A stretch of 64,000 bases of DNA from Clostridium sp. (GCA_012517995.1 JAAYTS010000141.1:3572-67571), one strand, 5' to 3'; numbered from the stretch's first letter, positions 6,486 to 52,510 are shown. The notes: generated by a model from the sequence alone, not told the origin. Numbers and translations: made by a program.

Positions 6486-6542
6486 AGATATTTTGTAATA
6501 TAAAATTTTGAAGTTTAAAAATAAATTTTTATTTAATAAATA

Positions 6543-10553: not shown

Positions 10554-11567
10554 TTACATTGTTCTTCCAACTGCATTTGCTACTTTCTCAAGTTCCTCCA
10601 TAACTTGAGAAAACTTAGAAGGTCTCAATGACTGAGGACCGTCACAAAGGGCACAATTTGGGTCCGAATGAACTTCAATAATAAGACCGTCTGCACCTGT
10701 GGCCACAGCACCCTTTGACAGTGCACTTACATATTTCCATGTTCCTGTTGCATGACTTGGGTCTACAATTATAGGCAGGTGTGAAAGTTCCTTAACAACA
10801 GGTATGGCACTTAAGTCAACGGTATTTCTTGTAGCAGTTTCAAAAGTTCTTATGCCACGTTCACATAAAATTACATTTTGGTTTCCTTCCGAGATGATAT
10901 ATTCAGCTGCCATAAGCCATTCTTCTATTGTTGCAGATAGTCCTCTTTTTAAAAGAACAGGTTTTTTATATAGTCCCACTTCTTTTAAAAGTCTAAAGTT
11001 TTGCATATTTCTTGCACCAATTTGGATAATATCTGTATAGGAAGCTACCAGTTCAACATCTCTAGTATCAACCACTTCAGTTACAAGTTTTAAGCCAGTA
11101 ATTTCTCTGGCCTCTGCCATTATTTTAAGTCCATCTTCTTCTAACCCTTGGAAGGAATAAGGAGAGGTTCTGGGCTTAAATGCACCACCACGAAGTATAT
11201 CAGCACCAGCTTCCTTTACTTTTTTGGCAGTATCAATATAGGTTTCTTTGTTTTCAATGGCACAAGGGCCAGCCATTACTACAACTTTATTTCCACCAAT
11301 TTGCACATCACCTACATTGACAATGGTAGGTACCTGCTTTAATTCCCGACCTGCAAGCTTATAAGGCTTCATAATAGGGACAATGTTTTCAACTCCTGGC
11401 ATTGTGGATATTTCTTGTGTATTTAGATGTCTTTTGTCGCCTATAGCACCTATTACTGTTTTAATATCTCCAAATATAGGATGTGTTCTAAAACCCAATT
11501 CTGACAATTTTCTCTCAACATTATTGATATCTTCCCTTGAAGCGCTTTGATTCATAATAATAATCAT
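10554..11567 (-). CDS. aroF: DAHP synthase, type I-beta with N-terminal regulatory domain
   Basis: [32 protein letters not shown] and DPSHATG motifs. Confidence 0.95.
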
Positions 11568-11611: not shown

Positions 11612-11900
11612 AATCAAAAAAACCCTTCATCCCTCTTATGTAAGGGACGAAGAGTTATAATCTCCACGCGGTACCACCCAAATTGGCAAATGCCCACTTT
11701 ATAATGTACAGGAAATACTTCCGATACATCCTTTCTTATAACGGTGAAAGCTCCGATTAAGCCTACTTTAGCAAAAATACTGCTTTTCAGCCAACAGCTC
11801 AAAGGGGAACTTCGATTATACTCCTTTTTTAGGCTTTCACCATCCCTAAATCGCTTTGAAAGTACATATAATTTACTTTCCCTTTTCATTGCTTTTTAAA
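11612..11900 (-). ncRNA. T-box riboswitch leader of aroF, probable Phe (UUC) specifier
   Basis: On the minus strand: stem I AGGGA..GGTGAAAGCC, GAAG-TTC specifier region (11809-11807), AGTA and CCGTTA boxes, T-box AATTTGGGTGGTACCGCG (11684-11667), then a terminator with U-tract (about 11655-11615). Confidence 0.92.
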
Positions 11901-29122: not shown

Positions 29123-30352
29123 GTGAATTATATGGATTTACTTCATACTGGAAATAACAATATCTTAACTGTTACAGCAATAAATAAGTATATAAAAGAA
29201 CTTATTTCTAAAGATTTTATTCTTTCAAATCTCTGGATTAGAGGTGAAATATCTAATTTTAAGCATCACTCTTCGGGACATATGTATTTTACATTAAAAG
29301 ATGAGAACAGCCTATTAAAGTGTGTAATGTTCAAAAACTGCAATTTAGGTCTTAAATTTACGCCTGAAAATGGAATGAAGGTTATTATAAAGGGCTATAT
29401 TTCTGTTTTTGAAAGGGATGGACAGTATCAATTGTATGCACAGGAAATGCAAAATGACGGTACTGGTAATTTACATATAGCATTTGAACAACTTAAAAAA
29501 AAGTTGTTTAATGAAGGACTGTTTGATGAAAAAATCAAAAAAAGAATACCCTTTTTGCCTGAAAATATAGGTGTGGTCACATCTTCTACAGGTTCTGTAA
29601 TCAGAGATATAATAAATGTATTAGATAGAAGATTTTATAATACCAGTGTAAAGATATATCCTGTGAGGGTGCAGGGAGAGGGAGCAGAAAAGGAAATAAG
29701 CAGAGGTATTTTAAGGTTTAATCAGCTAAAATGTGTGGATGTGATAATAATTGCAAGAGGCGGTGGTTCTTTAGAAGAATTATGGCCTTTTAATACTGAA
29801 GAAGTTGCAAGAAGCATTTTTCACTCTAACATACCTGTCATATCTGCAGTGGGACATGAGACTGATTATACCATCGCGGACTTTGTTGCAGATGTTAGGG
29901 CACCAACTCCTTCTGCTGCAGCAGAACTGGTTATTCCAGAAAAAATTGCAATTGAAAATAGAATAAGAGAACTGCATTTAAGGCTAGCTAACTCACTTAA
30001 GAGTAATTTGAAATTAAAAAGAGAAAGGCTTTTAAAAATTCAAAACTCAGCTCCTTTAAGACAGCCTTATGACAGAATATATCAAGAGAGAATGAGACTG
30101 GACATTTTAAACAGGGATATAAAGAAGGCCATTTTAGTTAAACATGAAAGATTGGCAGCTAAATATAATTTTTTGGTTGGAAAACTTGATACATTAAGCC
30201 CTTTAGCTGTACTGTCAAAAGGCTATGGATTATTAAAGTCTAATGAAAAGAAAATCTTAATAAAATCAATAGAAGATGTTGATGTTGGTGATGAAATAGA
30301 AGTTAGTTTGAAAGATGGAAAGATAATTTGTTCTGTTCTTTCAAAAGAGTAA
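29123..30352 (+). CDS. xseA: Exodeoxyribonuclease VII large subunit
   Basis: GEISNF..HSSGHMYFTLKD, ARGGGSLEEL, GHETD, RAPTPSAAAE. Confidence 0.97.
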   Translation: MNYMDLLHTGNNNILTVTAINKYIKELISKDFILSNLWIRGEISNFKHHSSGHMYFTLKDENSLLKCVMFKNCNLGLKFTPENGMKVIIKGYISVFERDGQYQLYAQEMQNDGTGNLHIAFEQLKKKLFNEGLFDEKIKKRIPFLPENIGVVTSSTGSVIRDIINVLDRRFYNTSVKIYPVRVQGEGAEKEISRGILRFNQLKCVDVIIIARGGGSLEELWPFNTEEVARSIFHSNIPVISAVGHETDYTIADFVADVRAPTPSAAAELVIPEKIAIENRIRELHLRLANSLKSNLKLKRERLLKIQNSAPLRQPYDRIYQERMRLDILNRDIKKAILVKHERLAAKYNFLVGKLDTLSPLAVLSKGYGLLKSNEKKILIKSIEDVDVGDEIEVSLKDGKIICSVLSKE

Positions 30353-30392: not shown

Positions 30393-30614
30393 ATGGCTAA
30401 AGATAAAAAGACTTTTGAAGAGTCAATGAAAGAATTGGAAAAAATTGTAGAAGATCTTGAAAAGGGTGAAATGCCTTTAGAAACTTCAATTGAAGCTTTT
30501 CAAAAGGGTGTGGAGCTTTCAAAAAATTTAAATAAAATCCTTGATGAAATGGAAAAGAAAATAACAATATTAATAGAAGATGAAGAGGGGACAATTAAAG
30601 AAGAGAATTTTTAA
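30393..30614 (+). CDS. xseB: Exodeoxyribonuclease VII small subunit
   Basis: FEESMKELEKIVEDLEKGEMPLE. Confidence 0.96.
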   Translation: MAKDKKTFEESMKELEKIVEDLEKGEMPLETSIEAFQKGVELSKNLNKILDEMEKKITILIEDEEGTIKEENF

Positions 30615-30665
30615 AACCAGCTTTAAAAATTTGTCTACAATGGCAAATTTGAGAGTATGTGTTAG

Positions 30666-30694
30666 TTGCACAAAGTGATTAAATATGATATAAT
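30666..30694 (+). promoter_or_regulatory. Sigma-A promoter upstream of the OLE RNA
   Basis: TTGCAC-N17-TATAAT with extended -10 TG. Confidence 0.72.
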
Positions 30695-30749
30695 TCTTTA
30701 ACACAACCACAGGTAATACAGTATTTTATATATAATAGAGCAACTTAAA

Positions 30750-31340
30750 CAGGATGGAGCAGTATTCTAGTCAGTACTGCCAGTTTTGAAGACGGGGCTA
30801 AAAATCCGTTAAGGGCACATCGATGAAGTTCCTGGTGTTGGCTTGTTACGCCCAGTAGTGGGCTGATGCTGGGAGTTAAGGTTTAGGGGCAATCTGCAAG
30901 GGCATGCGGAAGCTGTCCCCTTTACCGTGGAGACCCTATTACGTGGAAAATACAATAATTTGTTGACTACGGATAGGGAGTAAACCTGTTATGCGGTACG
31001 TAAAGTGCTGTGAACAGCGTAGCCTGCCTTGAGTGGTGTTGGCGGATAACGGTCAGGTGTAGAAGTATTGGCCGATACTTATACGCTAATGCAGTTTGAA
31101 ACCAACATTGCAAAAGAGGCTAGAAACTGGTAAGACTGTTGAGGAAATCTCCTAGACTGTTCTTAAAAAGAGGTATGCTGGGGATTGAAGTGTGGACTAA
31201 GTGGTAATCAGGCCCCATATTTGGAAACAATATGGCTGAGCTCTTAAAGGGAAACCGCTGATTTGGCGACATTTCAGTGAGTTCAGTGGAAATCAAGCTT
31301 GACCTAAGCCGCAAAATTTACTCAGCATATTTCCATCCTG
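30750..31340 (+). ncRNA. ole: OLE (ornate, large, extremophilic) RNA
   Basis: About 590-nt GC-richer island with no credible ORF, closed by CAGGATGGA/TCCATCCTG. Contains OLE-typical segments as I recall them (TATTCTAGTCAG, CTAAAAATCCG, GGGCACATCGATGAAGTTCCTGGTG, GCTGGGAGTTAAGG, GTAGCCTGCCTTGAGTG, GTGTGGACTAAGTGGTAATC). Lies directly upstream of oapA and dxs. Confidence 0.93.
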
Positions 31341-31379
31341 TGTTATATATAAATTCACATTAGGAGGAAGGCAGTTTAA

Positions 31380-31979
31380 GTGGAGGAACACAGTAAAAGC
31401 TCTAATAATGGTAAAAAGATTAAGTTTAAAACAAATTCAATTGTTGGATCTAAAAAGGAAAACACACAGTGGATTATATTTATTATCTTTCTAACATTTT
31501 TTCTGTCTGCGACAATTTCTGTAATTTCTTCTACTTTATTAGAAAACGTTGGAATAATCATTTCTTTTTTAATATTATTGATTATAATAATAATTGGTAT
31601 AGTTTTTGATATAATAGGTATAGCAATAACCACAGCAGAGGAAGCGCCTTTTCATTCAATGGCATCTAGAAAACTTTATGGTGCTAAGCAGGCAATTAAA
31701 CTTATAAGAAATGCAAACAAAGCTTCTACCATATGCAATGATGTAATAGGAGATATTTGCGGAGTTATAAGTGGAGCTGCAAGTAGTTATATAATAATAA
31801 CCATATCTAAAACAGCAAATTTAACGACATCAACTATTGTGGGATTTAGTTTGACAGGTCTTGTGGCAGCGGCTACAATAGGAGGTAAGGCAATAGGAAA
31901 AACCTTCGCTTTAAAATACAATAATTATATTACATATAAAGTGGGTATAGCTTTAAATTTTGTATCTAAAAAGAAATAA
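31380..31979 (+). CDS. oapA: OLE-associated protein A (DUF21/CNNM-like membrane protein)
   Basis: About 200 aa, 3-4 TM helices, FDIIGIA..A.E.PFHSMASRK and CNDVIGDICG (DxxxD) motifs; directly downstream of ole. Confidence 0.92.
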   Translation: MEEHSKSSNNGKKIKFKTNSIVGSKKENTQWIIFIIFLTFFLSATISVISSTLLENVGIIISFLILLIIIIIGIVFDIIGIAITTAEEAPFHSMASRKLYGAKQAIKLIRNANKASTICNDVIGDICGVISGAASSYIIITISKTANLTTSTIVGFSLTGLVAAATIGGKAIGKTFALKYNNYITYKVGIALNFVSKKK

Positions 31980-32021
31980 TAAAGAAATTTTAAAAAAGCT
32001 TGAAAGTGAGATGAAAATTAG

Positions 32022-33926
32022 TTGCAAAATATACTAGATTGTATAAATTCTCCTGATGATATAAAAAAGCTTAGCTACGAACAGCTTAAGGAATTAGCTT
32101 CTTCAATAAGATCTTTTTTAATAGAGAAGATATCTAAAACAGGAGGACATTTAGCACCTAATTTAGGTGTAGTTGAACTTACCTTAGCTCTGCACAGAGT
32201 GTTTTGTACACCTGATGATAAAATTATATGGGATGTAGGTCACCAATGCTATATACATAAAATTATAACAGGCAGAAAAGACATGTTTGATACCATGCGT
32301 CAATTAAATGGTTTATCGGGATTTCCAAAAGTTAATGAAAGTCCCCATGATGCTTTTAACACTGGTCACAGCAGTACATCAATTTCAGCTGCCTTAGGTA
32401 TTGCAAAAGCCAGGGATATAAAAAAAGAAAAGTATTCTGTTATTGCAGTGATAGGCGATGGTGCACTGACAGGGGGCATGGCATTTGAAGCCCTTAATGA
32501 TGCAGGAAGGTCTTTTAATGACCTTATTGTTATATTAAATGATAATGAAATGTCCATATCTAAAAATGTAGGCGGTCTTTCTAAATATTTAAATAAAATA
32601 CGTACAGAGCCCTTTTACTATAAAGTAAAAGAAGATATTGATATTATATTAAATAAAATTCCGGCAATAGGTAAAAGTGCAGTAAGAGCTCTTGACAGAG
32701 TTAAGGGTTCTATAAAATATATGATAATGCCAGGAATAATATTTGAAGAACTTGGATTTAAATACATAGGTCCAATTGATGGACACAATATGGAAGAGCT
32801 AGAAAATGTACTAAATAAAGCAAAAGGCATTAAAGGTCCGGTTTTTATACATGTATGCACTCAAAAGGGAAAAGGATATTATCATGCAGAAGAAAATCCA
32901 GATGTATTTCATGGAATTGCACCATTTGAAATAGAATCAGGAGAAGTTATTTCAAATGGCGGACCAAGTCATTCAAGTATTTTTGGGGAAGAGTTAGTTG
33001 AAATTGCAAATGAAAACGAAAAAATTGTTGCTATTACTGCTGCAATGCCAAATGGTACAGGATTAGATACATTTTCTAAAAAATATCCAGACAGGTTCTT
33101 TGATGTGGGAATTGCTGAACAACATGCAGTTACCTTTGCGGCAGGACTTGCCCGAAATGGCTTGGTGCCTGTATTTGCTGTGTACTCCTCTTTTTTACAA
33201 AGAGCTTATGATCAGGTACTTCATGATGTAGCTATTCAAAAGTTACATGTTGTTTTTGCTATTGACAGGGCAGGTATTGTGGGGGAAGATGGGGAAACAC
33301 ATCAGGGTATATATGATATATCTTTTTTAAGGCATATTCCCAATATGACTATTATGGCACCATGTGATTATAATGAGTTTAGAAAGATGATAAGGTATGC
33401 TGTTGAAGCTTTTGAGGGACCTATAGCAATAAGATATCCTAGGGGATGTGGACCTGAAAAATTATTTGAAAGTCCTGATATTGAATTAGGACAGCCTGTT
33501 CTTTTAAGAGAAGGTGAGGATATATCAATAATAGCTGTAGGAAATAAAGTAAAAGTTGCCTTAGAAGTTGCTGATTTATTAGAAAAGATGGATTTGTCAG
33601 CAGATGTTATTTATTCACGTTTTATAAAACCTATAAATCCAGAGCCAATAATTAATTCTGCAACTAAAACTGGAAAAATTATAACCATTGAAGACAATAC
33701 TGTTGAAGGTGGTTTTGGAAGCAAGATTCTTGAACTTATAAATGAAAGTGGCATAAATGTTAAAACAAAAGTTTTTGGGTATCCAGACAAGTTTATTTGT
33801 CATGGTTCTAAAAACCAATTAGAAAAAATATTTGGATTGGATGCAAAATCAATTTTTGAAAATGTGCTAAAAATGTTTAATAAGTGCATGAGTGTAAAAG
33901 ATGAATTTGGAGGGAATTTAATTTGA
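32022..33926 (+). CDS. dxs: 1-deoxy-D-xylulose-5-phosphate synthase
   Basis: GGHLAPNLG, WDVGHQ, GHSSTSISA, GDGALTGG, DVGIAEQHA, DGETHQG. Confidence 0.97.
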   Translation: MQNILDCINSPDDIKKLSYEQLKELASSIRSFLIEKISKTGGHLAPNLGVVELTLALHRVFCTPDDKIIWDVGHQCYIHKIITGRKDMFDTMRQLNGLSGFPKVNESPHDAFNTGHSSTSISAALGIAKARDIKKEKYSVIAVIGDGALTGGMAFEALNDAGRSFNDLIVILNDNEMSISKNVGGLSKYLNKIRTEPFYYKVKEDIDIILNKIPAIGKSAVRALDRVKGSIKYMIMPGIIFEELGFKYIGPIDGHNMEELENVLNKAKGIKGPVFIHVCTQKGKGYYHAEENPDVFHGIAPFEIESGEVISNGGPSHSSIFGEELVEIANENEKIVAITAAMPNGTGLDTFSKKYPDRFFDVGIAEQHAVTFAAGLARNGLVPVFAVYSSFLQRAYDQVLHDVAIQKLHVVFAIDRAGIVGEDGETHQGIYDISFLRHIPNMTIMAPCDYNEFRKMIRYAVEAFEGPIAIRYPRGCGPEKLFESPDIELGQPVLLREGEDISIIAVGNKVKVALEVADLLEKMDLSADVIYSRFIKPINPEPIINSATKTGKIITIEDNTVEGGFGSKILELINESGINVKTKVFGYPDKFICHGSKNQLEKIFGLDAKSIFENVLKMFNKCMSVKDEFGGNLI

Positions 33927-34720
33927 AAAAGGAGAGACTGGACGTGCTCCTTGTTCAAAAAGGCTACTTTGACAGCAGGGAGAAAGCTAAAAGTTCAATA
34001 ATGGCAGGTGTGGTTTTTGTAGATGATAATAAAGAAGATAAGCCTGGAACTAAGGTTAATATAGATTCTAAAATATTTATAAAAGAAAATGTTCATCCTT
34101 ATGTGAGCAGGGGAGGTCTTAAATTAGAAAAGGCAATAAAAGTTTTTAACATTAATTTAAGTGAAAAAATTGCAATTGATATAGGGGCTTCAACTGGTGG
34201 TTTTACTGATTGTATGCTAAAAAACGGTGCAAAAAAAGTTTTTGCAATTGATGTGGGCTATGGACAGCTTGCCTGGCAGCTTAGGAATGATGAACGTGTA
34301 GTGTGTATGGAAAGAACAAATATAAGATATGTGACTTTAGATAAAATAGGTGTTTTGGCGGATTTTGCATCAATAGATGTGTCATTTATCTCTTTAAAAA
34401 AAGTAATACCTGTGGCAATGAACCTTTTAAAAGAAGATGGTGAAATTTTATGCCTTATAAAGCCTCAATTTGAAGCTGGAAAGGACAAGGTAGGTAAAAA
34501 TGGGGTGGTACGTGATAAAGATACACATAGGGAGGTTATAGAAGATATTTTAAATTTTTCATTAGAATGTGGTCTTAAAATAAAAGGTCTTGACTTTTCA
34601 CCTATAAAAGGCCCTGAGGGAAATATTGAGTTTTTGGCGTATCTTTCTAAAATAGAAGGCAGCATTTCTTTTGATGCTAAAAAAGTTGTAGATAAATCCC
34701 ATGAAGATTTAATAATTTAA
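33923..34720 (+). CDS. tlyA: TlyA family rRNA methyltransferase
   Basis: S4 domain ERLDVLL, VSRGGLKL, DIGASTGGFTD, DVSFISL, LIKPQFE, GPEGNIEF. Confidence 0.95.
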   Translation: MKKERLDVLLVQKGYFDSREKAKSSIMAGVVFVDDNKEDKPGTKVNIDSKIFIKENVHPYVSRGGLKLEKAIKVFNINLSEKIAIDIGASTGGFTDCMLKNGAKKVFAIDVGYGQLAWQLRNDERVVCMERTNIRYVTLDKIGVLADFASIDVSFISLKKVIPVAMNLLKEDGEILCLIKPQFEAGKDKVGKNGVVRDKDTHREVIEDILNFSLECGLKIKGLDFSPIKGPEGNIEFLAYLSKIEGSISFDAKKVVDKSHEDLII

Positions 34721-34776: not shown

Positions 34777-34805
34777 TTGTGAATTAGTAATGTTTATGAT
34801 ATAAT
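34777..34805 (+). promoter_or_regulatory. Sigma-A promoter of the LRR gene
   Basis: TTGTGA-N17-TATAAT with extended -10 TG, about 150 nt upstream of the ATG. Confidence 0.6.
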
Positions 34806-34957: not shown

Positions 34958-36142
34958 ATGACAAAGCGACAAGAAGTTGATTCTATTATTTCAGAAGTAT
35001 ACAATGCAGATGCAAAACCACCGAAGAAGAAAAAGGTTTTAAAAACTGTATTATTTATTTTTTTAGTTATTGTACTTATGGGAGGAACAGTTTTAGCAAC
35101 AACTTTTTATTATGAAAATTATATTGTGCCAGGTGACAAAAAGGTATCAATTGTAGAACCGGAAGCTGCGGATTATCCTGGTTTTATTGCAGAACAAGTA
35201 AAGACAGGGAAAATCGGCATAGATGAGGTTGAAGGTTTTTTTGATGAAAGTAATACATCTATCATTAGAAAGAAAGCAGGTTTAATTGATTTTTCTGATA
35301 AAAATCTAGAAAATAAAATTAGAGAGAAAATTGACAAAAAAACTGGGGTTATATTTGATTCAGATGTATCCCAAATAAAATCATTGGATTTTAGTGATTC
35401 TTCAATTCAAAATCTTGACGGATTGGAATTTTTAGTAAATTTAACAGAGTTAAATTTAAATAACAACTACATAAAGGATTTAAGTCCTATTGAAAAACTT
35501 ACTAATTTAGCTTATGTAAATTTATCTCAAAATCTAATAACGGATATAGATGCTTTAGAAGGAATGACCAATTTAAAGGAACTAGATTTAAGTTATAACT
35601 TTATTGATGATATAAATGCCCTAAGTAAATTAATTTCTTTAAACAGTTTAAATCTTAAGGGGAATCAAATTAAAAATATTTCTCCTTTAATTGAATTGAC
35701 TTCTTTAAAAGTTTTAATTCTTGCAGAAAATGATATTTCAGATGTAAGCTCACTTAGCAATTTATCTGATTTAATTACCCTTGAACTTAATGACAACCAG
35801 ATAACCAGTATTTATGGTTTAGATGGTTTAACCAATGTTTATGAATTGAAATTACATAATAATAAAATTGAAGATATAAGCCCACTTAGCGGATTTACAA
35901 ATTTAAGAAAATTAGACATATATAACAACTTAGTTTCAGATATAAGTGTTTTAGATAATTTTACTTTATTAGAAGAAGTGCGTGTTGAACGTAATCCTAT
36001 AAGCGATTTTGAGAGATTGAAAAAATACAAACAAATTACAGTTGAAGATGAAGAGTTTGAAGCAAATGAAGCAAGTGAATCAAATCAAGAGATTGTTGAA
36101 GTAAATGAATTAGATGAAGAAAATGAAACAGATGGAGATTAG
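34958..36142 (+). CDS. Membrane-anchored internalin-like leucine-rich repeat protein
   Basis: KKKK followed by a TM helix, an F.D..LE..IR cap, about ten 22-aa LxxLxLxxNxIxDIxxL repeats and an acidic tail. Confidence 0.9.
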   Translation: MTKRQEVDSIISEVYNADAKPPKKKKVLKTVLFIFLVIVLMGGTVLATTFYYENYIVPGDKKVSIVEPEAADYPGFIAEQVKTGKIGIDEVEGFFDESNTSIIRKKAGLIDFSDKNLENKIREKIDKKTGVIFDSDVSQIKSLDFSDSSIQNLDGLEFLVNLTELNLNNNYIKDLSPIEKLTNLAYVNLSQNLITDIDALEGMTNLKELDLSYNFIDDINALSKLISLNSLNLKGNQIKNISPLIELTSLKVLILAENDISDVSSLSNLSDLITLELNDNQITSIYGLDGLTNVYELKLHNNKIEDISPLSGFTNLRKLDIYNNLVSDISVLDNFTLLEEVRVERNPISDFERLKKYKQITVEDEEFEANEASESNQEIVEVNELDEENETDGD

Positions 36143-36159: not shown

Positions 36160-36188
36160 GGGGCGGGGAATTTTTCTCCCGCCTCTTT
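36160..36188. terminator. GC-rich terminator between the LRR gene and bioA
   Basis: GGGGCGGGG-loop-TCCCGCCTC followed by TTT. Confidence 0.65.
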
Positions 36189-37545
36189 ATATATCTTTAA
36201 AGTACTGATTTATTGAGTCTTTACAAACCTTCACCATAAAGTCAATATCCTCATTTTCTATAATATAAGGGGGCATAAAGTATATTATGTTTCCTAATGG
36301 TCTTAAAAGAACACCTTTTTCAAGGGCTTTTTTGTATATATTGTAGCCAACTCTTTTTAAAGAGTCAAAAGGCTCTTTTGTTTTTTTATCTTTTACAAGT
36401 TCAATTGCACCTATCATGCCTATTTGACGGTATTCTCCAACTTGAGGGATGTCAAGAAGCTCTTTTTCTGCTAGTTCTTTAAGGTAAGTTTGTTTTTTTG
36501 TGTTTTTATCCAGTATTTTTTCATCTTCAAATATGTTTAAAGATTCAATTGCTACAGCACAGCCTAAGGGGTTGCCGCTATAACTGTGACTGTGTAAAAA
36601 AGCCTTCATTTTTGAATAATCATCATAAAAGGCATTATATATTTCATCTGTCATAACCACCAGGGAAAGAGGCATGTATCCTGCTGTAAGACCTTTAGAA
36701 AGACATATTATGTCTGGGGCGATACCAGCGTGTTCACAAGCAAACATTTTGCCTGTCCGTCCAAATCCAACGGCAATTTCATCTGCAATAAAGTTAATAT
36801 TGTATTTGTCGCAGAGTTTTCGAAGTTTTTTTAGGTATATAGGAGGATATATTTTCATTCCTGCTGCACATTGAACCAAAGGTTCTACAATAATAGCGCT
36901 TATTTCTTCATGGTTTTTTGAAACATCTTCTTCAATAAAGGAAAAACACTCTGCATTACAGCTGTCCCTATGTTTATTAAATTTGCAGCGGTAGCAGTCA
37001 GGACCTGTAGAACGTATAACATCAAGTAATAGAGGCTTATAAATTTTATTATATAAATCAACTCCACCAACAGAAAGTGCCCCTATAGTCTCACCATGGT
37101 AGGCATCTGTTAAAGCTACAAACCTTGTTTTTTTTGTTTTCCCAGTTTGCTGATGATATTGAAAACTTAGTTTTAATGCAATTTCAACGGCAGAAGAACC
37201 ATTATCCCCAAAAAATACTTTGTTAAGATTTTCTGGAAGTAAGCTTACAATTCTTTCTGAAAGCTCAATAGCTGGCTCATGGCTAAAGTTTGCAAAAATC
37301 ACATGTTCTAATTTATTTGCCTGTCTATATAGAGCATCATTAATGCGTTTGTGGGAGTGACCAAAAAGGTTTACCCACCAAGATGATACTGCATCTAGAT
37401 ATTTTTTGCCATTTATATCTTCTAAATAAGCACCGTTGCCCTTTTTTATAACAATGGGAGGAAAGTTTTCATAATCCTTCATCTGGGAGCAGGGGTGCCA
37501 TATATGTTTTAAGTCCTTTTCCTGTAATTTTCTCATTTTATCCAT
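36187..37545 (-). CDS. bioA: Adenosylmethionine-8-amino-7-oxononanoate aminotransferase
   Basis: [43 protein letters not shown]. Confidence 0.96.
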
Positions 37546-37578
37546 TTTTAAAAATCATCCTTTTTTTAAAATTTTGTA

Positions 37579-38280
37579 TTAAAAACACAAGTTGAGAATT
37601 TTGTTTAAATCAATATGTTCTTTGTAGCAGTTTTTTATATCTGAAAAATCATCTGTCTTTATTTGAGGCATTACACAAACTATAGGAATGCCTGTAATTT
37701 TTGCAATTATGTCTATATTATCCTTTTGGCAAAAGTCTTTAGTGTAGCCATTTATAATTATTCCTTTAATGTTAATGCCCTTATGTTTTGCAAATTCACA
37801 AGTTAGTACAGTGTGGTTTATTGTTCCAACTCCTGCCCTTGCTACAAGTAAAACAGGCAAATTTAAATCCTTTATAAGATGGTATATATAATACTTATCT
37901 CTAATAAGAGGGACTATTAAACCTCCAGCCCCTTCAACCAGTGTATAGTGATATTTTTCTTTTAAATAATTAAAGCCTTCTATTATTTTTTTTGTATCAA
38001 TTTCAACATCTTCTAATTCAGCAGCTAGATGGGGTGAAACTTCTTCCTTTAGACAGTAGCAATTCATTTTTTCATAAGGCTCATCAATAGGGACTAGTTT
38101 TTTTATAAATTCTATATCACCAGGAATAAAAGAGGTATTTTTTTTTATTCCACCAGATTGTACTGGCTTGTAGCTACAGCATTTATAATTAGCTTTTCGA
38201 AAAGAATAGTTTAGCCCTGCAGTAATAAAGGTTTTTCCTACATCTGTATCAGTTCCGGCAATAAATATTCCCTTACCCAT
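37579..38280 (-). CDS. bioD: Dethiobiotin synthetase
   Basis: GTDTDVGKT, KPVQSG, VEGAGG, GTINHT. Confidence 0.96.
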   Translation of the reverse strand: MGKGIFIAGTDTDVGKTFITAGLNYSFRKANYKCCSYKPVQSGGIKKNTSFIPGDIEFIKKLVPIDEPYEKMNCYCLKEEVSPHLAAELEDVEIDTKKIIEGFNYLKEKYHYTLVEGAGGLIVPLIRDKYYIYHLIKDLNLPVLLVARAGVGTINHTVLTCEFAKHKGINIKGIIINGYTKDFCQKDNIDIIAKITGIPIVCVMPQIKTDDFSDIKNCYKEHIDLNKILNLCF

Positions 38281-38330
38281 TTTCTACAACCCTCCTTATC
38301 TAAATTTGAATTTTTAAACATTAAAATTTT

Positions 38331-39311
38331 CTATATGCTAAAACCTGCTTCTATTATCATGGCTTTATCTTTTTTTACATCACTTCCTGTTGTAGTGAGG
38401 TAATTGCCAGTTAGTGCTGCATTTATTCCTGCCCTAAAACCAAGGGCTTGTTTGTCTTTTAACGCCATTCTGCCACCTGCATATCTAATGTAGCAGTCTT
38501 TTAGTATAAATCTATAAACAGCCATGGTTTTTAAAATCTCCATAGGTGATAATACTTCTAAATTTTCGAGGGGAGTTCCTTTAATAGGGGTTAACACATT
38601 TACAGGTATTGATTTTATACCAAGGTTCTTTATTTCAAAGGCCATATTTATTCTGTCTTCCAAACTTTCACCCATGCCGATTATGCCCCCACAGCACACT
38701 TCTAATCCAGCTTTTTGTACATTTTCTATTGTTTTTACCCTGTCTTGATAAGTATGAGTTGTGCAGATGTTTTTATAATAGTTTTTACTTGTTTCTATAT
38801 TGTGATGGTAAGTAATAACTCCTGAATCTTTAAGTTTTTTTGCCTGCTGATAAGTTATAATGCCATGGGATGCACAAAGTTCTATATTTACATCCTTTGA
38901 AAGCCTTTTATATATTTTGGCTAATTTTTCAATATCTTCATCTTTATCAATGCCCTTTCCACTGGTGACAAGGGAAAATCTGTGAGCACCACTTTTTTTC
39001 ACTTCTAAAGCTTTTTCTAAAACTTCAGGGTATTCTAAAAGTTCATATTCTAAAACTCCTGTATTATAATGAATAGATTGGGCACAGTATTTGCAGTTTT
39101 CAGAGCATTTACCTGATTTAGCATTTAATATTGTACAAAGATCAGCCTTTTTTCCCACCAGCTTTTCACGTATTTCGTTAGCTGATTCAAATAAAACATT
39201 AAGTGTATCGGTATCCTTTTTATCTATTTTTAAAAGTTTTAAAGCTTCATCAAAAACAATATTTTCACCTTTTAAAATTCTATCCTTTAGATCCAAAATA
39301 AATTGTTTCAT
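38331..39311 (-). CDS. bioB: Biotin synthase
   Basis: Radical SAM CSENCKYC, YHHNIET, CCGGIIGMGE, RYAGGR. Confidence 0.97.
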   Translation of the reverse strand: MKQFILDLKDRILKGENIVFDEALKLLKIDKKDTDTLNVLFESANEIREKLVGKKADLCTILNAKSGKCSENCKYCAQSIHYNTGVLEYELLEYPEVLEKALEVKKSGAHRFSLVTSGKGIDKDEDIEKLAKIYKRLSKDVNIELCASHGIITYQQAKKLKDSGVITYHHNIETSKNYYKNICTTHTYQDRVKTIENVQKAGLEVCCGGIIGMGESLEDRINMAFEIKNLGIKSIPVNVLTPIKGTPLENLEVLSPMEILKTMAVYRFILKDCYIRYAGGRMALKDKQALGFRAGINAALTGNYLTTTGSDVKKDKAMIIEAGFSI

Positions 39312-39419
39312 ATTGTTATACCTCCAAATACATTTTTATTTAAAACCATTATAATAAATTATTTTTTTCTATCTTTACATAAACCCATATTGCCCAGTAA
39401 ATAAAAATACTTTTTAAAC

Positions 39420-40223
39420 TTAATCTTTAGAAATAAAGACAAATAAATTATGATAAGTTGCCAAAACCTTGTTATCTTTTCTATAATCCTTGTCATATGT
39501 ATTAATTACCTTGTCAATAAAGTTTGGATGAACAATATTTGACCTCTTTTGGCTGTTGTTTGCACCTATTTTTTTAATTGAGTAAAGAAAATCTTTACAG
39601 CAGTTAAAATATTCATATTCATAAGTCTCCATCAAAGATAGGGTGTGGCTTTTATCCAATATACCGCTGCATATTTTTTTATAATCCTTGAGGGATAAAA
39701 AGGGTTGGCTTGGATATATGGTATCTTTTATACCAAAATATGAACTTGTCTTTTCATAACATTTTTTAAGTTCTATAAAAGTGTTTTCGCCAAAGGTTGA
39801 AAAGCACATAAAACCCTTAGGTGCCAAAGTTTTAACCAGTTTTTTAAAAGTGTTTTCTAAATTATTAAACCACTGAAATGCAGCATTTGATAAAATAAGA
39901 TCAAAATCTTTATCAAAATCCATTTCTTCCACATCACCACAAATAAAACCCACCCTTGTATCTGAAATTTTAGACTTTACATGGCTTATCATGCCAGGGG
40001 CAATGTCGATGGCAGTTATATTAGAGTTTTTAAAATGCTCACATAAAGCTTTTGTGACATATCCTGTTCCACAGCCTATTTCAAGTATGTTTTTATATTG
40101 GGTTTTGGTGGACTTTATTTTTTCAATTAAAATATCCCCCATATTTTTTTGAACTTTTGCATATTTGTCATACTGTCTTGCATTTCTGCTAAATCTTCTT
40201 TTTAATTTTTCCTTATCAATCAT
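39420..40223 (-). CDS. bioC: Malonyl-ACP O-methyltransferase
   Basis: RFSRNARQYD...Q, LEIGCGTG, SNAAFQW, STFG..TF.EL. Confidence 0.93.
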   Translation of the reverse strand: MIDKEKLKRRFSRNARQYDKYAKVQKNMGDILIEKIKSTKTQYKNILEIGCGTGYVTKALCEHFKNSNITAIDIAPGMISHVKSKISDTRVGFICGDVEEMDFDKDFDLILSNAAFQWFNNLENTFKKLVKTLAPKGFMCFSTFGENTFIELKKCYEKTSSYFGIKDTIYPSQPFLSLKDYKKICSGILDKSHTLSLMETYEYEYFNCCKDFLYSIKKIGANNSQKRSNIVHPNFIDKVINTYDKDYRKDNKVLATYHNLFVFISKD

Positions 40224-40951
40224 AAACTCTCTACCTCTAGATACTTTTTAATTATTTCATAACACCTGTGAGGGTGAGTATAAAAGGGTATATGTCCTGT
40301 ATTTTGTAATTTTATTAAATTTGAATTTTTATATTTTTCTTTTATATATTCACTTGATTTATATGGGCAAATAATGTCACTGTCTCCATGTATAAGAAGA
40401 GGGGACAGGGGAAGGGGTATTTCCCTTAAATCCATAGTTTTAAGGTATTCTAAGCCACATACCAATGAATTTATATTATAGTAAGATCCAAAAAGCCTCA
40501 TTTCATCTATAAACCTTTCATAATGCCCATCTGTTTTTTCACTTTTAGAAAAAAAGTTTTTATAAAATTTATTTAAAGTGCTATCTTTATCACTTTTTAG
40601 CATATAAATCATTTTGTCTATAGTATCTTTTGACAAGAGGGTGGTGCAAAGACTGTCTTTATCATTTACAAATTTTAAAGTCCCACTTATTAAAATTAAA
40701 TTATCAATTCTTTCAAATAAAACTTTTGCTATTTCTAAAGCAACCATAGCGCCTAAAGACCAACCCATAAGGGAAAAGTTTTTTTTATCATCTATTAAAT
40801 GGAGTACTTTTTTCTTAAAACCATCAATTGAAAAAATATCTTCCCAGTCCACAAAAGTTATTTCAAAATGCTTTTCTAAAAGGCTAAATAAAGTTTTCCA
40901 GGGAAATTTACCAACGGCCCAACCTGTCAATACAACCATATGTCTTGTCAT
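40220..40951 (-). CDS. bioH: Pimeloyl-ACP methyl ester esterase (BioH-like alpha/beta hydrolase)
   Basis: GWSLG nucleophile elbow, GDSD Asp and TGH His; overlaps bioC within the bio operon. Confidence 0.75.
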   Translation of the reverse strand: MTRHMVVLTGWAVGKFPWKTLFSLLEKHFEITFVDWEDIFSIDGFKKKVLHLIDDKKNFSLMGWSLGAMVALEIAKVLFERIDNLILISGTLKFVNDKDSLCTTLLSKDTIDKMIYMLKSDKDSTLNKFYKNFFSKSEKTDGHYERFIDEMRLFGSYYNINSLVCGLEYLKTMDLREIPLPLSPLLIHGDSDIICPYKSSEYIKEKYKNSNLIKLQNTGHIPFYTHPHRCYEIIKKYLEVESL

Positions 40952-40952
40952 C

Positions 40953-42119
40953 TTAAATCAACCCCAGCTTTCTTCCATTGTTTTCAAGCCTGTCTACAAC
41001 ATATTCTAAATGTTTTTTTGTATGGGCTGCTGTAATTGATATTCTTAGCCTGCTGGTGCCCCTTGGTACTGTAGGAGGTCTTATTGCTGGAATATATATC
41101 CCATCATTAAAAAGATGCTGGGAAAATTCCAATGTCTTTTTTTCATCTCCCACAATTACTGGTATTATTGGAGTTATTGTGTTAGGAATTTTAAAGCCTA
41201 GGGACTTAAGCTGATTTTTAAGCCAGTCTGAATTTTTTAAAAGCTGCTCCCTTTTTTTTGGTTGATTTTTTATAATATCAAGAGCTTTAATAGAGGCTGC
41301 AACTGATGAGGGGGGAAGGGCTGTTGAAAAAACAAAACTTCTAGAAAAATTTTTAAAATATTCAATAAAGTATTCATCTGAAGCAGCATAACCTCCTATT
41401 GAACCTACAGCCTTGCTTAATGTTCCCATGTGAATGTGAATTTCATCACTTACTCCTAAATAAGAGGCAGTACCAGCACCGTCCTTTCCTAAAACCCCAA
41501 ATCCATGAGCATCATCAACCATTGTGACAACATTGTGTTTTTTTGAAATATCCACAATATCATCTAAGGGGGCAATATCCCCATCCATGCTAAATACCCC
41601 GTCTGTGACAATTAAATTGTACTTTCCTTTAAAATTTTTTATCTTATAGGACAAATCATCCATATCACAATGCTTATATCTTAAAAGCTTAGCACCGCTT
41701 AAAAGACAGCCGTCTATAATACTTGCATGATTGTATTTATCGCAAAATATAACCCAGTCTTTATTGCAAAGAGCCTGTAAAATTCCTAAATTGGCCATAT
41801 AGCCTGTATTAAATACCAAGGCTTTTTGAGTATTTTTAAAATCTTTGATTTTTTCCTCAAGCTCATGGGTTAATATATATGAACCTGTTGTAAGCCTTGA
41901 ACCTCCTGCGCCCACCCCATACTTTTCCACTGCTTTTATAGAGGCTTTTTTTACATCTGTATCACCACAAAGGCCTAAATAATTGTTTGAGCCTAATAAA
42001 ATTATTTCTCTGCCATCTATAATAACTTTTTCTTTTTGGGATGTTTGAAGGTTTTTAAATTGCCCTCTGTATATGTTGTTATCCTTTAAAGAAAATAAAA
42101 TATCTTTTATATGTTCCAA
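40953..42119 (-). CDS. bioF: 8-amino-7-oxononanoate synthase
   Basis: GSNNYLGL, GAGGSRL, NHASIIDG, DGVFSMDGD, DDAHG, GTLSKA. Confidence 0.96.
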   Translation of the reverse strand: MEHIKDILFSLKDNNIYRGQFKNLQTSQKEKVIIDGREIILLGSNNYLGLCGDTDVKKASIKAVEKYGVGAGGSRLTTGSYILTHELEEKIKDFKNTQKALVFNTGYMANLGILQALCNKDWVIFCDKYNHASIIDGCLLSGAKLLRYKHCDMDDLSYKIKNFKGKYNLIVTDGVFSMDGDIAPLDDIVDISKKHNVVTMVDDAHGFGVLGKDGAGTASYLGVSDEIHIHMGTLSKAVGSIGGYAASDEYFIEYFKNFSRSFVFSTALPPSSVAASIKALDIIKNQPKKREQLLKNSDWLKNQLKSLGFKIPNTITPIIPVIVGDEKKTLEFSQHLFNDGIYIPAIRPPTVPRGTSRLRISITAAHTKKHLEYVVDRLENNGRKLGLI

Positions 42120-43769: not shown

Positions 43770-43851
43770 TAAAAAAACAAATTAATGGTTAAACTATTTT
43801 TATCTTTTATTAATAAAAATGGCATATAAAATATATCTAAAGGAGATAAAA

Positions 43852-44841
43852 ATGGGAACCATTAGACATGAATCTAGAACTGATTATTTAAAATTTAATT
43901 TTAATTATAATACTGCCCCTGAGATTAAGTTGATAGAGTTTGAACTTAAAGATGTACTTTCAGACAGCAAAGGGGAGATACGTAAAATGTGCACAAGTGT
44001 TTTAAATGCTGGTGGAAAGAGAATAAGACCTTTACTTACTATGTACAGTGGACTTGTTTTTTCACCTGCAAATAAAGAAATGATAAGGGGAGCTGTTTCA
44101 GTAGAATTAATTCATATGGCATCCCTTGTCCACGATGATATTATAGACAATTCAAATTTAAGAAGAAATAAGCCTTCTGTCAACAGTTTATGGGGTAATC
44201 ACTTTGCAGTTTTGTGCGGAGATTATCTGTTTTCAAAAGCCTTTGGAATTTTATCTAAATTAAACAGTTCAAGATGTATGGATTTAATGGTACAATCCAT
44301 TGAAAATATGTGTCATGGTGAGATTTTACAAGCAGATAACAAATACAATTTAGATATGGATATTGACACCTACTATGAGATAATTTCTAAAAAAACAGGG
44401 ATTTTAATTGAAAATAGCTGCAAAATGGGTGCAATTATATCAGGCACAGGGAAAAAGTATGAAGAGGCAATGGGAGGATACGGTTTAAATATTGGTTTGG
44501 CATTTCAAATAATAGACGACATATTGGATATATGCGGAAAAACAAATGAAATGGGAAAACCTAAATTTGAGGACATAAGCCAGGGAAATATAACACTTCC
44601 TATGATTATTTTATTAAAAAACAAAAAATACAGAGAAGTTGTAAAAAATATTCTAAAAAGAAAGGAAGATTTAAAAAGTATAGGAATGATGCTTATGGAT
44701 TTAAATATTATAAACACTTGTTTTGACATTGCAGAAGGGCACATAAAAAAAGCCAAAAGTTATTTATCTTTTTTGCCCCAGTCAGAATACACCCAAAAAC
44801 TATACAGCCTTGCAGATTTGCTTATGATAAGGGCAAATTAA
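43852..44841 (+). CDS. Long-chain trans-polyprenyl diphosphate synthase (HepT/IspB-like)
   Basis: GGKRIRP, first Asp-rich motif ASLVHDDIID..RR (small residues at -5/-4), KTG, FQIIDDILD; ATG at 43852 after AAGGAG. Confidence 0.9.
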   Translation: MGTIRHESRTDYLKFNFNYNTAPEIKLIEFELKDVLSDSKGEIRKMCTSVLNAGGKRIRPLLTMYSGLVFSPANKEMIRGAVSVELIHMASLVHDDIIDNSNLRRNKPSVNSLWGNHFAVLCGDYLFSKAFGILSKLNSSRCMDLMVQSIENMCHGEILQADNKYNLDMDIDTYYEIISKKTGILIENSCKMGAIISGTGKKYEEAMGGYGLNIGLAFQIIDDILDICGKTNEMGKPKFEDISQGNITLPMIILLKNKKYREVVKNILKRKEDLKSIGMMLMDLNIINTCFDIAEGHIKKAKSYLSFLPQSEYTQKLYSLADLLMIRAN

Positions 44842-44869: not shown

Positions 44870-45931
44870 TCACAATAATTTCAAGTGCCTTAATATTTTG
44901 CACATTCTGTGATAAAAGACAGTATTACGCCCTCCTTGTTTTATAATGTTTGTGCTTACTTTTTTATTGTATTTTAAAAAAGCTTTTGAATCTGATAAAT
45001 ACATGGCTAGAAGGCCTTTTACCACAGTTTTATGAAATAGGGGATATTTTAAAGTGTCGCACATTTCTAAAGATTTTTTTGCAAAAAATATTATTCTGTC
45101 TTCACACGTTTTTATGTCTTTATAATAAAAGGTGAAGTTTAGTTGTTTTTCTTCTAAATCTTCCATATAGTCAATGTAATAGTCTAATAAAATATGAAGT
45201 CCACAAATCCAAGGGAAATAAGCCCTATCTAAAGATAAAAAATCAGCATCTTTAAAATGGGGATTATGAGATGCGGCATACATGGCGAAAATCCCTAAAG
45301 TAGAGCCTGTTGCAGCTGAAAATTCCCACAAGCTTATTTTAGGATAGTCTTTTAAGTACTTTTCACCCCAGTTTTTTAAATAATTTTCTCTTATATCAGG
45401 CTCAAGATGTTTGTAGGTTTGTAAATTTGAATACCAATTCACATATTTTTTTATGTAAGGGAGTGCTTTTTCATATGAATGTAGGTTTAATAGGGAAGAC
45501 CTGCACTGGGCAACAAGATAATGCAGGTATTTGTTATCCTCTTTTATAGGATAATATTTATAATAATCCCCTAAAAAAGATGAAGTATCTATGGCATCGT
45601 AAAGGGATAAATGAAGCTGGCGAAAAGCATTTTCATCTATAGTTTGGGTTTTATCACAAAGATTATCAAGGTAGTCGCTTATTGTTTGTAATGCACAAAT
45701 AAATTGTATTGTTAAGATAAAATCAGCATCTGGGTGCAGGGCATAGACACTGCCACCTATGCAGTGAAAACTTTTGGCAGATATACTCAAAAGCCCTTGT
45801 TTTTTAAGCTCATTATCCTTAAAAGTTTTTAATTTATTCTTATAACCTTCAAGTTTTTCTTTGACTTCAGGGAATACGTAGGTTATATATTTTAAAATTA
45901 GCTTTAATCCGCTATTGTATTTAGTTTTTAT
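44870..45931 (-). CDS. YtpB/DUF2600-family tetraprenyl-beta-curcumene synthase-like terpene synthase, probable ATA start
   Basis: ELKKQGLLSISAKSFHCIGG, QTISDYLDNLCD, FSAATGSTLG, LHILLDYYID. The frame stays open 47 codons upstream of the tracked TTG to an ATA 8 nt after GGAGG. Confidence 0.88.
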   Translation of the reverse strand: MKTKYNSGLKLILKYITYVFPEVKEKLEGYKNKLKTFKDNELKKQGLLSISAKSFHCIGGSVYALHPDADFILTIQFICALQTISDYLDNLCDKTQTIDENAFRQLHLSLYDAIDTSSFLGDYYKYYPIKEDNKYLHYLVAQCRSSLLNLHSYEKALPYIKKYVNWYSNLQTYKHLEPDIRENYLKNWGEKYLKDYPKISLWEFSAATGSTLGIFAMYAASHNPHFKDADFLSLDRAYFPWICGLHILLDYYIDYMEDLEEKQLNFTFYYKDIKTCEDRIIFFAKKSLEMCDTLKYPLFHKTVVKGLLAMYLSDSKAFLKYNKKVSTNIIKQGGRNTVFYHRMCKILRHLKLL

Positions 45932-52447: not shown

Positions 52448-52476
52448 TTGAAGCTTTCCACCAGATGTTATATAAT
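52448..52476 (+). promoter_or_regulatory. Sigma-A promoter of the dockerin gene
   Basis: TTGAAG-N17-TATAAT. Confidence 0.55.
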
Positions 52477-52510
52477 ATTAATTAACAATAATCTGTACGA
52501 GGTATTATAT

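Follow-up and report, generated by a model that had tools for sequence, protein, structure and literature searches.

The segment at positions 30,666–31,979 of the 64,000-nt stretch of Clostridium sp. DNA that we analysed (the window) is, by its sequence features, a standard and ordinary ole-oapA module of a well-studied family. The properties that define OLE RNA or OapA and are open to sequence testing were found here, the CNNM-like fold of OapA only as weak matches. Very probably, the module lies in its usual gene cluster, has a dedicated promoter, is expressed as one unit with an added contribution from read-through, and yields a stable, trimmed OLE RNA. We infer the transcription start site (TSS), the transcript ends, the stability of the RNA and its stress response at this locus from the experimental type system, H. 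halodurans C-125 (Halalkalibacterium/Bacillus, hence also B. halodurans).

An Rfam scan of the whole 64-kb window gave two matches above threshold, one of which was OLE RNA (RF01071; positions 30738–31352, plus strand). This match was full-length and not truncated, covering model positions 1–616 with a score of 555.9 bits (E = 2.7e-160), against a gathering score of 50 bits. The score also exceeded the 390-bit cut-off for 'full-length' OLE RNA (PMC11332333), which came from a different model build. The RNA was identical to the RF01071 consensus at 240 of the 249 strongly conserved (upper-case) positions, and three of the nine mismatches were compensatory changes in the closing helix, P1. OLE RNA filled the longest stretch of the window that has no ORF (30615–31379, 765 nt; the runner-up was 427 nt), and its GC content was 0.43–0.46 compared with approximately 0.30 in the flanking DNA. 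An earlier note on this DNA had placed an OLE RNA of ~590 nt, with its closing helix, in the largest 'empty' gap of the ORF track; the identity, the size and the location were all borne out, and so was the helix.

P1 is a perfect 10-bp helix formed by ACAGGATGGA (30749–30758, plus strand) and TCCATCCTGT (31332–31341, plus strand), and it encloses 593 nt. Folding of the predicted primary transcript gave an MFE structure that includes this helix and has a z-score of -4.35 relative to shuffled sequences. Because P1 is absent from the Rfam structure line, it was tested separately across loci, with its register placed 10 nt after the conserved UUUAC and at a constant 3' offset. Segments with differing sequences paired at this one register in L023 (TCAAAATTAAAGAT/GTCTTTAATTTTGA), L042 (ATAAGTGGT/ACCACTTAT), L031 (TCGGATGGC/GCCATCCGA) and L088 of A. 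cellulolyticus (CAGGGTGG/CCACCCTG), as well as in L026, L053 and L060, indicating that P1 covaries among relatives. The MFE fold also contained a leader-trailer helix extending P1 (30725–30736 with 31344–31354), which we considered as a processing stalk; this reading was dropped because the helix was not conserved in L085–L088, the Acetivibrio and Herbivorax loci.

The RNA keeps the loop and the bulge of P13, and thus a predicted OapB site. The P13 hairpin (31215–31235, plus strand) reads CCAUAUU[U]G-GAAA-CAAUAUGG, with a GAAA (GNRA) tetraloop at 31224–31227 and a single bulged U that can be placed two pairs before the loop; the GNRA tetraloop and the single-nucleotide bulge of P13 are requirements for OapB binding (PMC7936274). 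A hairpin loop matching L9.3 carries the palindrome GGCC (31070–31073, plus strand), which equals the RF01071 consensus; in the OLE homodimer resolved by cryo-EM, the two monomers kiss symmetrically through the L9.3 palindrome (PMC12286853). Furthermore, the junction nucleotides of the k-turn, the element bound by OapC, agreed with the consensus, the P14.1 loop was GCGA as it is in B. halodurans, and the conserved A-rich loop GCUAAAAAUC, tentatively L4, was present. In the P6 region (30880–30926, plus strand), which is the bS21 site, the GGGG/CCCC pairs were kept and two U-U mismatches lay at the base of the stem. The 3' strand of P6 is CCCCUU here, whereas H. halodurans has the perfect anti-Shine-Dalgarno mimic CCUCCU (comparison with PMC12054373); this departure carries little weight because Rfam shows the P6 stretch to be variable across the family.

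These determinants bear on the alternative that OLE is mainly cis-acting here, that is, a long structured 5' untranslated leader controlling oapA-dxs-tlyA and not a free stable RNA. The retention of the protein-binding and dimerisation determinants of a trans-acting OLE RNA argues against it, as do the observations in B. halodurans of a single stable band of OLE size and of OLE working in trans with OapA at the membrane (PMC3413148). A cis-acting leader would suit the spacing at the 3' end, where only 38 nt and no terminator separate the end of P1 from the oapA start codon, and it would suit the GTG start of oapA, which is conserved across the clade and has a distant Shine-Dalgarno sequence. 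We regard this alternative as very unlikely, and favour a stable OLE RNA acting in trans.

As a family, OapA proteins are characterised by binding to OLE RNA (2:1) at P2/P4a. In the window, the oapA gene (31380–31979, plus strand) encodes a protein of 199 aa and is preceded by the Shine-Dalgarno sequence AGGAGG (31362–31367, plus strand), which lies 12 nt ahead of the GTG. We consider the GTG start to be right because the N-terminus MEEH aligns with the MDEH, MDES or MDGN of relatives. The DxxxD motif, described as intact in the earlier note, is D121-V-I-G-D125 (nt 31740–31754), within the block CNDVIGD. Residues C119, N120, D121, V122, G124 and D125 were invariant in an alignment of 18 sequences with identity down to 37%, and the block was also invariant in a second alignment (n = 33 sequences). 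DxxxD is a hallmark of OapA and is not found in CNNM domains (PMC11332333).

No Pfam or NCBIfam match to OapA was obtained, even at E ≤ 10, and a search of the OapA profile against PDB sequences found no relative. Because these searches were empty, OapA was identified from its synteny, its motif and a weak fold match. OapA was historically defined by its co-localisation with ole (PMC12054373). OLE RNA lay directly 5' of the homolog in 28 of 31 Rfam-scanned loci (12/13, 8/8 and 8/10), and the conserved OLE core motif was found upstream of an OapA homolog in 62 loci. The window protein was 37–90% identical to proteins adjoining OLE in Acetivibrio, Herbivorax, Oscillospiraceae, Syntrophomonadaceae and Christensenellales; in a contig scan for OapA homologs, identity was at most 52% among the matches listed. 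A large protein collection held 7,565 OapA homologs, several sources label such homologs 'Mg2+ and Co2+ transporter CorB', and a few of them carry a precomputed PF01595 (CNNM/DUF21) match. The OapA sequence has about four long hydrophobic helices, and its predicted model (moderate pLDDT, 66) showed five long helices. Its top six Foldseek matches were all transmembrane domains of CNNM/CorB/CorC proteins and were weak (E 0.036–2.5, TM 0.36–0.43), the best being 7m1t/7m1u (MtCorB) and 7cfg/7cff (CorC TM domain). The relationship between OapA and CNNM proteins has been published (PMC11332333).

The genes around the module run in the order nusB, xseA, xseB, OLE, oapA, dxs and tlyA, and the gene calls agreed with the xseAB / ole-oapA-dxs-tlyA arrangement given in the earlier note. 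On the upstream side are xseA (29123–30352, plus strand) and xseB (30393–30614, plus strand). On the downstream side are dxs (32022–33926, plus strand; TIGR00204, 834 bits) and a gene for a tlyA-family rRNA 2'-O-methyltransferase (33923–34720, plus strand; TIGR00478, 286 bits). This neighbourhood is the usual 'ole gene cluster', and dxs often adjoins ole-oapA (PMC10898510). The gap between oapA and dxs is 42 nt, and tlyA overlaps the dxs stop codon. A terminator scan gave no terminator-like site in 30615–32506, nor between oapA, dxs and tlyA; the only candidates on the plus strand were weak 6-bp stems within the coding sequences of xseA and dxs. The last gene of the ole unit is probably tlyA. 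The gene that comes next is LRR/internalin-like (34958–36142) and has a TTGTGA-17-TGaTATAAT of its own at 34777–34805.

Comparison of the upstream side among relatives showed a stepwise reduction. The order is xseB-ispA-DUF212-OLE in A. clariflavus and A. cellulolyticus and xseB-DUF212-OLE in A. alkalicellulosi and Herbivorax sp. ANBcel31, and the window and its 88% identical relative L083 have xseB-OLE, with ispA and DUF212 absent from the cluster. The window also contains a polyprenyl synthetase gene, 12 kb further downstream. No ORF of the 64-kb window corresponded to oapB, oapC or rpsU; OapB occurs in approximately 60% and OapC in approximately 45% of OLE-bearing species (PMC11332333).

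The host is plausibly a spore-forming, cellulosome-type member of Bacillota. The closest named relatives of its OapA are from Herbivorax sp. ANBcel31 and Acetivibrio species, a type I dockerin is present on a pectate-lyase-like protein (52448–54199), and the spoIIIA operon and the Asp23 and DUF2273 genes lie upstream of the cluster. The description of the host as a cellulolytic anaerobe is therefore plausible in view of these relatives, the dockerin protein and the sporulation genes.

Upstream of OLE, a -35-like element TTGCAC (30666–30671, plus strand) is followed, with a spacing of 17 nt, by an extended -10 element TGaTATAAT (30686–30694, plus strand) that contains a perfect TATAAT at 30689–30694; the spacing falls in the 16–18 nt range of sigma-A promoters. 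The predicted TSS is at approximately 30700–30702. The earlier note had called this a near-consensus sigma-A promoter about 55 nt upstream of the RNA. The distance was correct, since the -10 element ends 55 nt 5' of P1; 'near-consensus' is apt for the extended -10 element, which is perfect, but not for the -35 element, in which TTGCAC matches TTGACA at only three of six positions and TGCACA, with a 16-nt spacer, at four of six.

The frequency of such motifs was evaluated in several ways. A generic promoter scan gave 34 sites versus 29.7 expected in shuffled sequences, no more than chance would give in DNA this AT-rich. The strict motif TGNTATAAT occurred 20 times when both strands were counted (128 kb of strand), compared with 9.0 ± 2.7 in composition-matched simulations, and its expectation in the 124-nt xseB-OLE spacer was approximately 0.01–0.02. 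Among OLE loci, the strict TGNTATAAT occurred within 200 nt 5' of the OLE core in 23 of 62 loci (expected, 0.019 per 200 nt), an enrichment of approximately 20-fold ahead of OLE genes in general. Each of the 17 OLE loci inspected had, no more than ~125 nt upstream, a promoter-like site whose hexamer resembles a -10 element, and in 10 of the 17 the site was a strict TGnTATAAT. As a by-product of the comparison, extended -10 promoters are thus widespread among OLE genes, which is a small refinement.

Comparison with relatives provides stronger evidence for the promoter than does the rarity of the motif. The block from the -35 element to ~10 nt past the -10 element was kept almost base for base in the window, L083 and L085 (the locus of Herbivorax sp. 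ANBcel31): the -35-like element was the same in all three, with TTG conserved, and so was the extended -10 element. The spacer flanking the block diverges among the three loci, the distance from the end of the -10 element to the start of the Rfam model is 44, 58 and 124 nt (window, L083 and L085, respectively), and the gene upstream of the block in L085 is DUF212, not xseB. In B. halodurans, OLE was shown in 2012 to have its own promoter and also to be co-transcribed with its neighbours (PMC3413148); the proximal promoter raised expression more than 100-fold, and induction by ethanol was approximately 7-fold (PMC3413148).

These data also weigh on the possibility that the promoter-like site is inactive or minor, and that OLE RNA is supplied mainly by read-through from nusB-xseA-xseB and excised by RNase. 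The lack of a terminator-like site 3' of xseB, the partial co-transcription seen in B. halodurans, the chance-level number of generic promoter-like matches and the weak -35 element are all consistent with this possibility. It is nevertheless unlikely, given that the extended -10 block was conserved in L083 and L085 despite a diverged spacer and a different upstream gene, that TGNTATAAT is enriched 5' of OLE genes, and that the proximal promoter has such a large effect in B. halodurans. We therefore favour a dedicated promoter, to which read-through from xseB may add. The suggestion that ole-oapA-dxs-tlyA can be transcribed independently of xseAB is supported by the conserved promoter block and the terminator-free cluster.

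Because the -10 element ends 55 nt before P1, a 5' leader of ~48 nt (predicted TSS to P1; 30701–30748, plus strand) is expected on the primary transcript, whether trimmed or retained; the length of this leader varies in relatives. Among OLE loci, the commonest -10 position ends ~13 nt before the conserved core, which places the TSS at the first nucleotides of P1 in most loci. In B. halodurans, likewise, the 5' RACE ends and the predicted start of OLE are at P1 (PMC3413148). Since the predicted TSS of the window locus lies ~48 nt before P1, unlike that of most OLE loci, an extra processing step is assumed here. The leader is the sole unusual local feature besides the absence of ispA and DUF212, and it is a minor one.

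The leader holds a second perfect TATAAT (30731–30736), and this hexamer could be the functional -10 element, with a TSS ~6 nt before P1 and hence the geometry of B. halodurans and most other loci. Its perfect sequence and its canonical position relative to P1 agree with this arrangement, and so does the commonest -10 position elsewhere. Yet it lacks both a TG extension and a recognisable -35 element (CACAGG/ACAGGT), neither L083 (TATACGGC), which is the closest relative, nor L085 has kept it, and TATAAT-like strings are common at 30% GC. The hexamer was rejected as an alternative promoter because of this lack of conservation, and we judge a start from it to be improbable; the distal extended -10 element is preferred.

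With the promoter at the distal position, it might be supposed that the OLE promoter of this subclade moved off P1 and that the resulting leader of 48 to 125 nt, far from being a neutral spacer, has a function in processing or regulation. The proximal ~35 nt of the leader is conserved in the Herbivorax/Acetivibrio-like subclade and includes a string, CAGUAUU(U)UA, similar to the beginning of the OLE core; this string could compete with the core for pairing. We regard a functional leader as unlikely on this evidence. If true, the leader would represent an undescribed, clade-specific layer of OLE biogenesis, for example a checkpoint of folding or maturation. The leader was also considered as a degenerate copy of the 5' end of OLE, but the local alignment, with p = 0.03 in the window, was not significant in relatives.

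Taken by analogy with H. halodurans, the favoured reading would proceed as follows. RNA polymerase with the housekeeping sigma factor would start near 30700, and the ~48-nt leader, OLE, oapA, dxs and tlyA would be transcribed as a single unit, with read-through from nusB-xseAB adding to the transcription of OLE. The mRNA part would turn over, while the compact OLE fold, cut back to P1, would persist as a stable species of ~600 nt. OLE RNA would then dimerise and dock on OapA dimers in the membrane, probably together with OapB, OapC and bS21 encoded elsewhere, and the particle would help the cell to withstand short-chain alcohols, cold and excess Mg2+ and to manage on poor carbon sources. A possible route is modulation of a CNNM-like divalent-cation function of OapA.

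Among bacterial noncoding RNAs to which no biochemical function is known to have been assigned, OLE RNA ranks with the largest and the best conserved, so every well-defined OLE locus has some value, and alcohol tolerance in a cellulosome-type anaerobe has some biotechnological relevance. The earlier note went further and presented the locus as a tractable example, which was overstated: an OLE promoter had already been shown in B. halodurans in 2012 (PMC3413148), and more than 1,500 OLE representatives have been aligned and catalogued (PMC12054373). The protein partners of OLE and their binding sites have been described (PMC12054373, PMC7936274), and Infernal has been used to search the whole of GTDB R214 for OLE (PMC11332333). 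The RNA, its partner gene, the cluster and the dedicated promoter all match published knowledge (2006–2012; GTDB survey, 2024), and OLE function is no more testable through the window locus than in the existing genetic system of H. halodurans. The locus adds little past annotation; P1 covariation, the subclade leader and the loss of ispA and DUF212 are small refinements, not new biology.

Four comparisons place the locus among known systems. The first is with H. halodurans C-125. There, as in the window, OLE is followed directly by oapA, the cluster includes xseAB, dxs and tlyA-type genes, the OapA protein carries DxxxD and the P13 hairpin combines a GNRA loop with a bulge. Both have a sigma-A-type OLE promoter (predicted in the window), and OLE of H. 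halodurans is also co-transcribed with its neighbours. The two differ in that the predicted TSS of the window is ~48 nt 5' of P1, whereas that of H. halodurans is next to P1, and in that ispA is missing from the window cluster. H. halodurans is an aerobic alkaliphile, whereas the host of the window is plausibly an AT-rich anaerobe with dockerin genes.

The second comparison is with the CNNM/CorB/CorC/MpfA Mg2+ transporters, whose DUF21 transmembrane domains were the best, albeit weak, structural matches of the OapA model. OapA is predicted to consist of the membrane domain only (199 aa), without CBS or CorC domains, and it has the DxxxD motif, which CNNM domains are without. The third is with the OLE RNA of Clostridium acetobutylicum, which was resolved as a homodimer by cryo-EM (Nature 2025, PMC12286853). 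The window RNA shares with it the GGCC of L9.3, the GCUAAAAAUC loop and the junction nucleotides of the k-turn. The C. acetobutylicum RNA is 577 nt long and its dimer structure has been seen, whereas the window RNA is 593 nt long and its dimerisation is predicted.

The fourth comparison is with the loci of Acetivibrio clariflavus, A. cellulolyticus, A. alkalicellulosi and Herbivorax sp. ANBcel31 (L085–L088), whose OLE RNAs scored 540–556 bits. The 5' strand of P1 is ACAGGATGGA in three of them, as in the window, and CAGGGTGG in A. cellulolyticus. Their OapA proteins are 62–70% identical to that of the window. These loci retain DUF212 between xseB and OLE, together with ispA in A. clariflavus and A. 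cellulolyticus, whereas the window and L083 do not; like the window, they have dxs-tlyA downstream and a TGnTATAAT promoter upstream.

Among the four Acetivibrio and Herbivorax loci compared (L085-L088), those of A. clariflavus and A. cellulolyticus carry ispA, encoding a polyprenyl synthetase, and a DUF212 gene between xseB and OLE, and those of A. alkalicellulosi and Herbivorax sp. ANBcel31 carry the DUF212 gene without ispA; neither gene is present in this interval in the window (30615-30737) or in its 88%-identical relative L083, a pattern of stepwise loss among the relatives. At 12 kb downstream, the window encodes a polyprenyl synthetase of 340 aa (43819-44841) and carries a DUF2600 gene (44870-45790, minus strand).

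In the predicted leader, between the conserved promoter and the closing helix P1, the string ACAGTATTTTA (30718-30728) resembles GCAGTATTCTA of the OLE core; the aligned position reads GCAGTAT in L085 (Herbivorax sp. ANBcel31) and AGTATT in L083. A shuffle test of this likeness gave p=0.03 in the window and was not significant in the other loci tested. A second TGATATAAT was found on the plus strand within oapA (31607-31615), over the codons of the conserved FDII segment, in which D77 is invariant. This copy probably reflects coding constraint, not an internal promoter.

Three metagenome or Logan contigs of close relatives start at or within OLE, which occupies nucleotides 1-604 of L082, 1-544 of L084 and 1-554 of L089. 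L082 (JGI 3300061443) begins exactly where P1 begins, at Rfam model position 12, and L089 comprises 3,935 nt, spanning OLE-oapA-dxs-tlyA only. Such starts could mean that the contigs derive from transcripts or that assembly broke off at an RNA of high conservation.

Two further loci, from Anaerofustis stercorihominis and Anaerofustis sp. (L048 and L054), encode an OapA homolog (6001-6525 in both) with 45% identity and an intact CNDVIGD block. No OLE RNA was found by Rfam search within 12.5 kb of this gene, even at E<=1, and the gap to the upstream ORF is only about 250 nt. [quoted passage not shown]

After tlyA, the next gene in the window (34958-36142, plus strand) codes for an internalin-like protein that has leucine-rich repeats and a hydrophobic segment at its N-terminus. 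No terminator-like site was found between the two genes, and the internalin-like gene has its own promoter-like site, TTGTGA-17-TGaTATAAT (34777-34805). It is followed on the opposite (minus) strand by an apparent biotin biosynthesis cluster (36187-42119), which includes a class III aminotransferase (BioA-like), a dethiobiotin synthetase-like AAA_26 protein, a radical SAM/BATS protein (BioB-like), a methyltransferase, an alpha/beta hydrolase and a class I/II aminotransferase (BioF-like). A T-box leader (11640-11898, minus strand, 118.4 bits) immediately precedes a DAHP synthase gene (10554-11567, minus strand); this arrangement suggests that aromatic amino-acid biosynthesis is controlled by tRNA sensing. 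The protein encoded at 52448-54199 (plus strand) combines a pectate-lyase-like domain with a type I dockerin at its C-terminus, which indicates a cellulosome-type organism.

Reduced OLE RNAs (224-264 bits, some shorter than 500 nt) are still located 5' of OapA homologs in six comparison loci (L078, L038, L039, L061, L065 and L074), whose hosts are MAGs labelled Bacillales UBA660, 'uncultured Bacilli', Clostridia and related groups. These RNAs match the published 'variant' OLE classes. In the window OLE, the P6 stem, which is the bS21 site (30880-30926), contains two U-U mismatches and keeps the conserved G-C pairs; it reads CCCCUU, whereas H. halodurans has CCUCCU, a perfect mimic of the anti-Shine-Dalgarno sequence.
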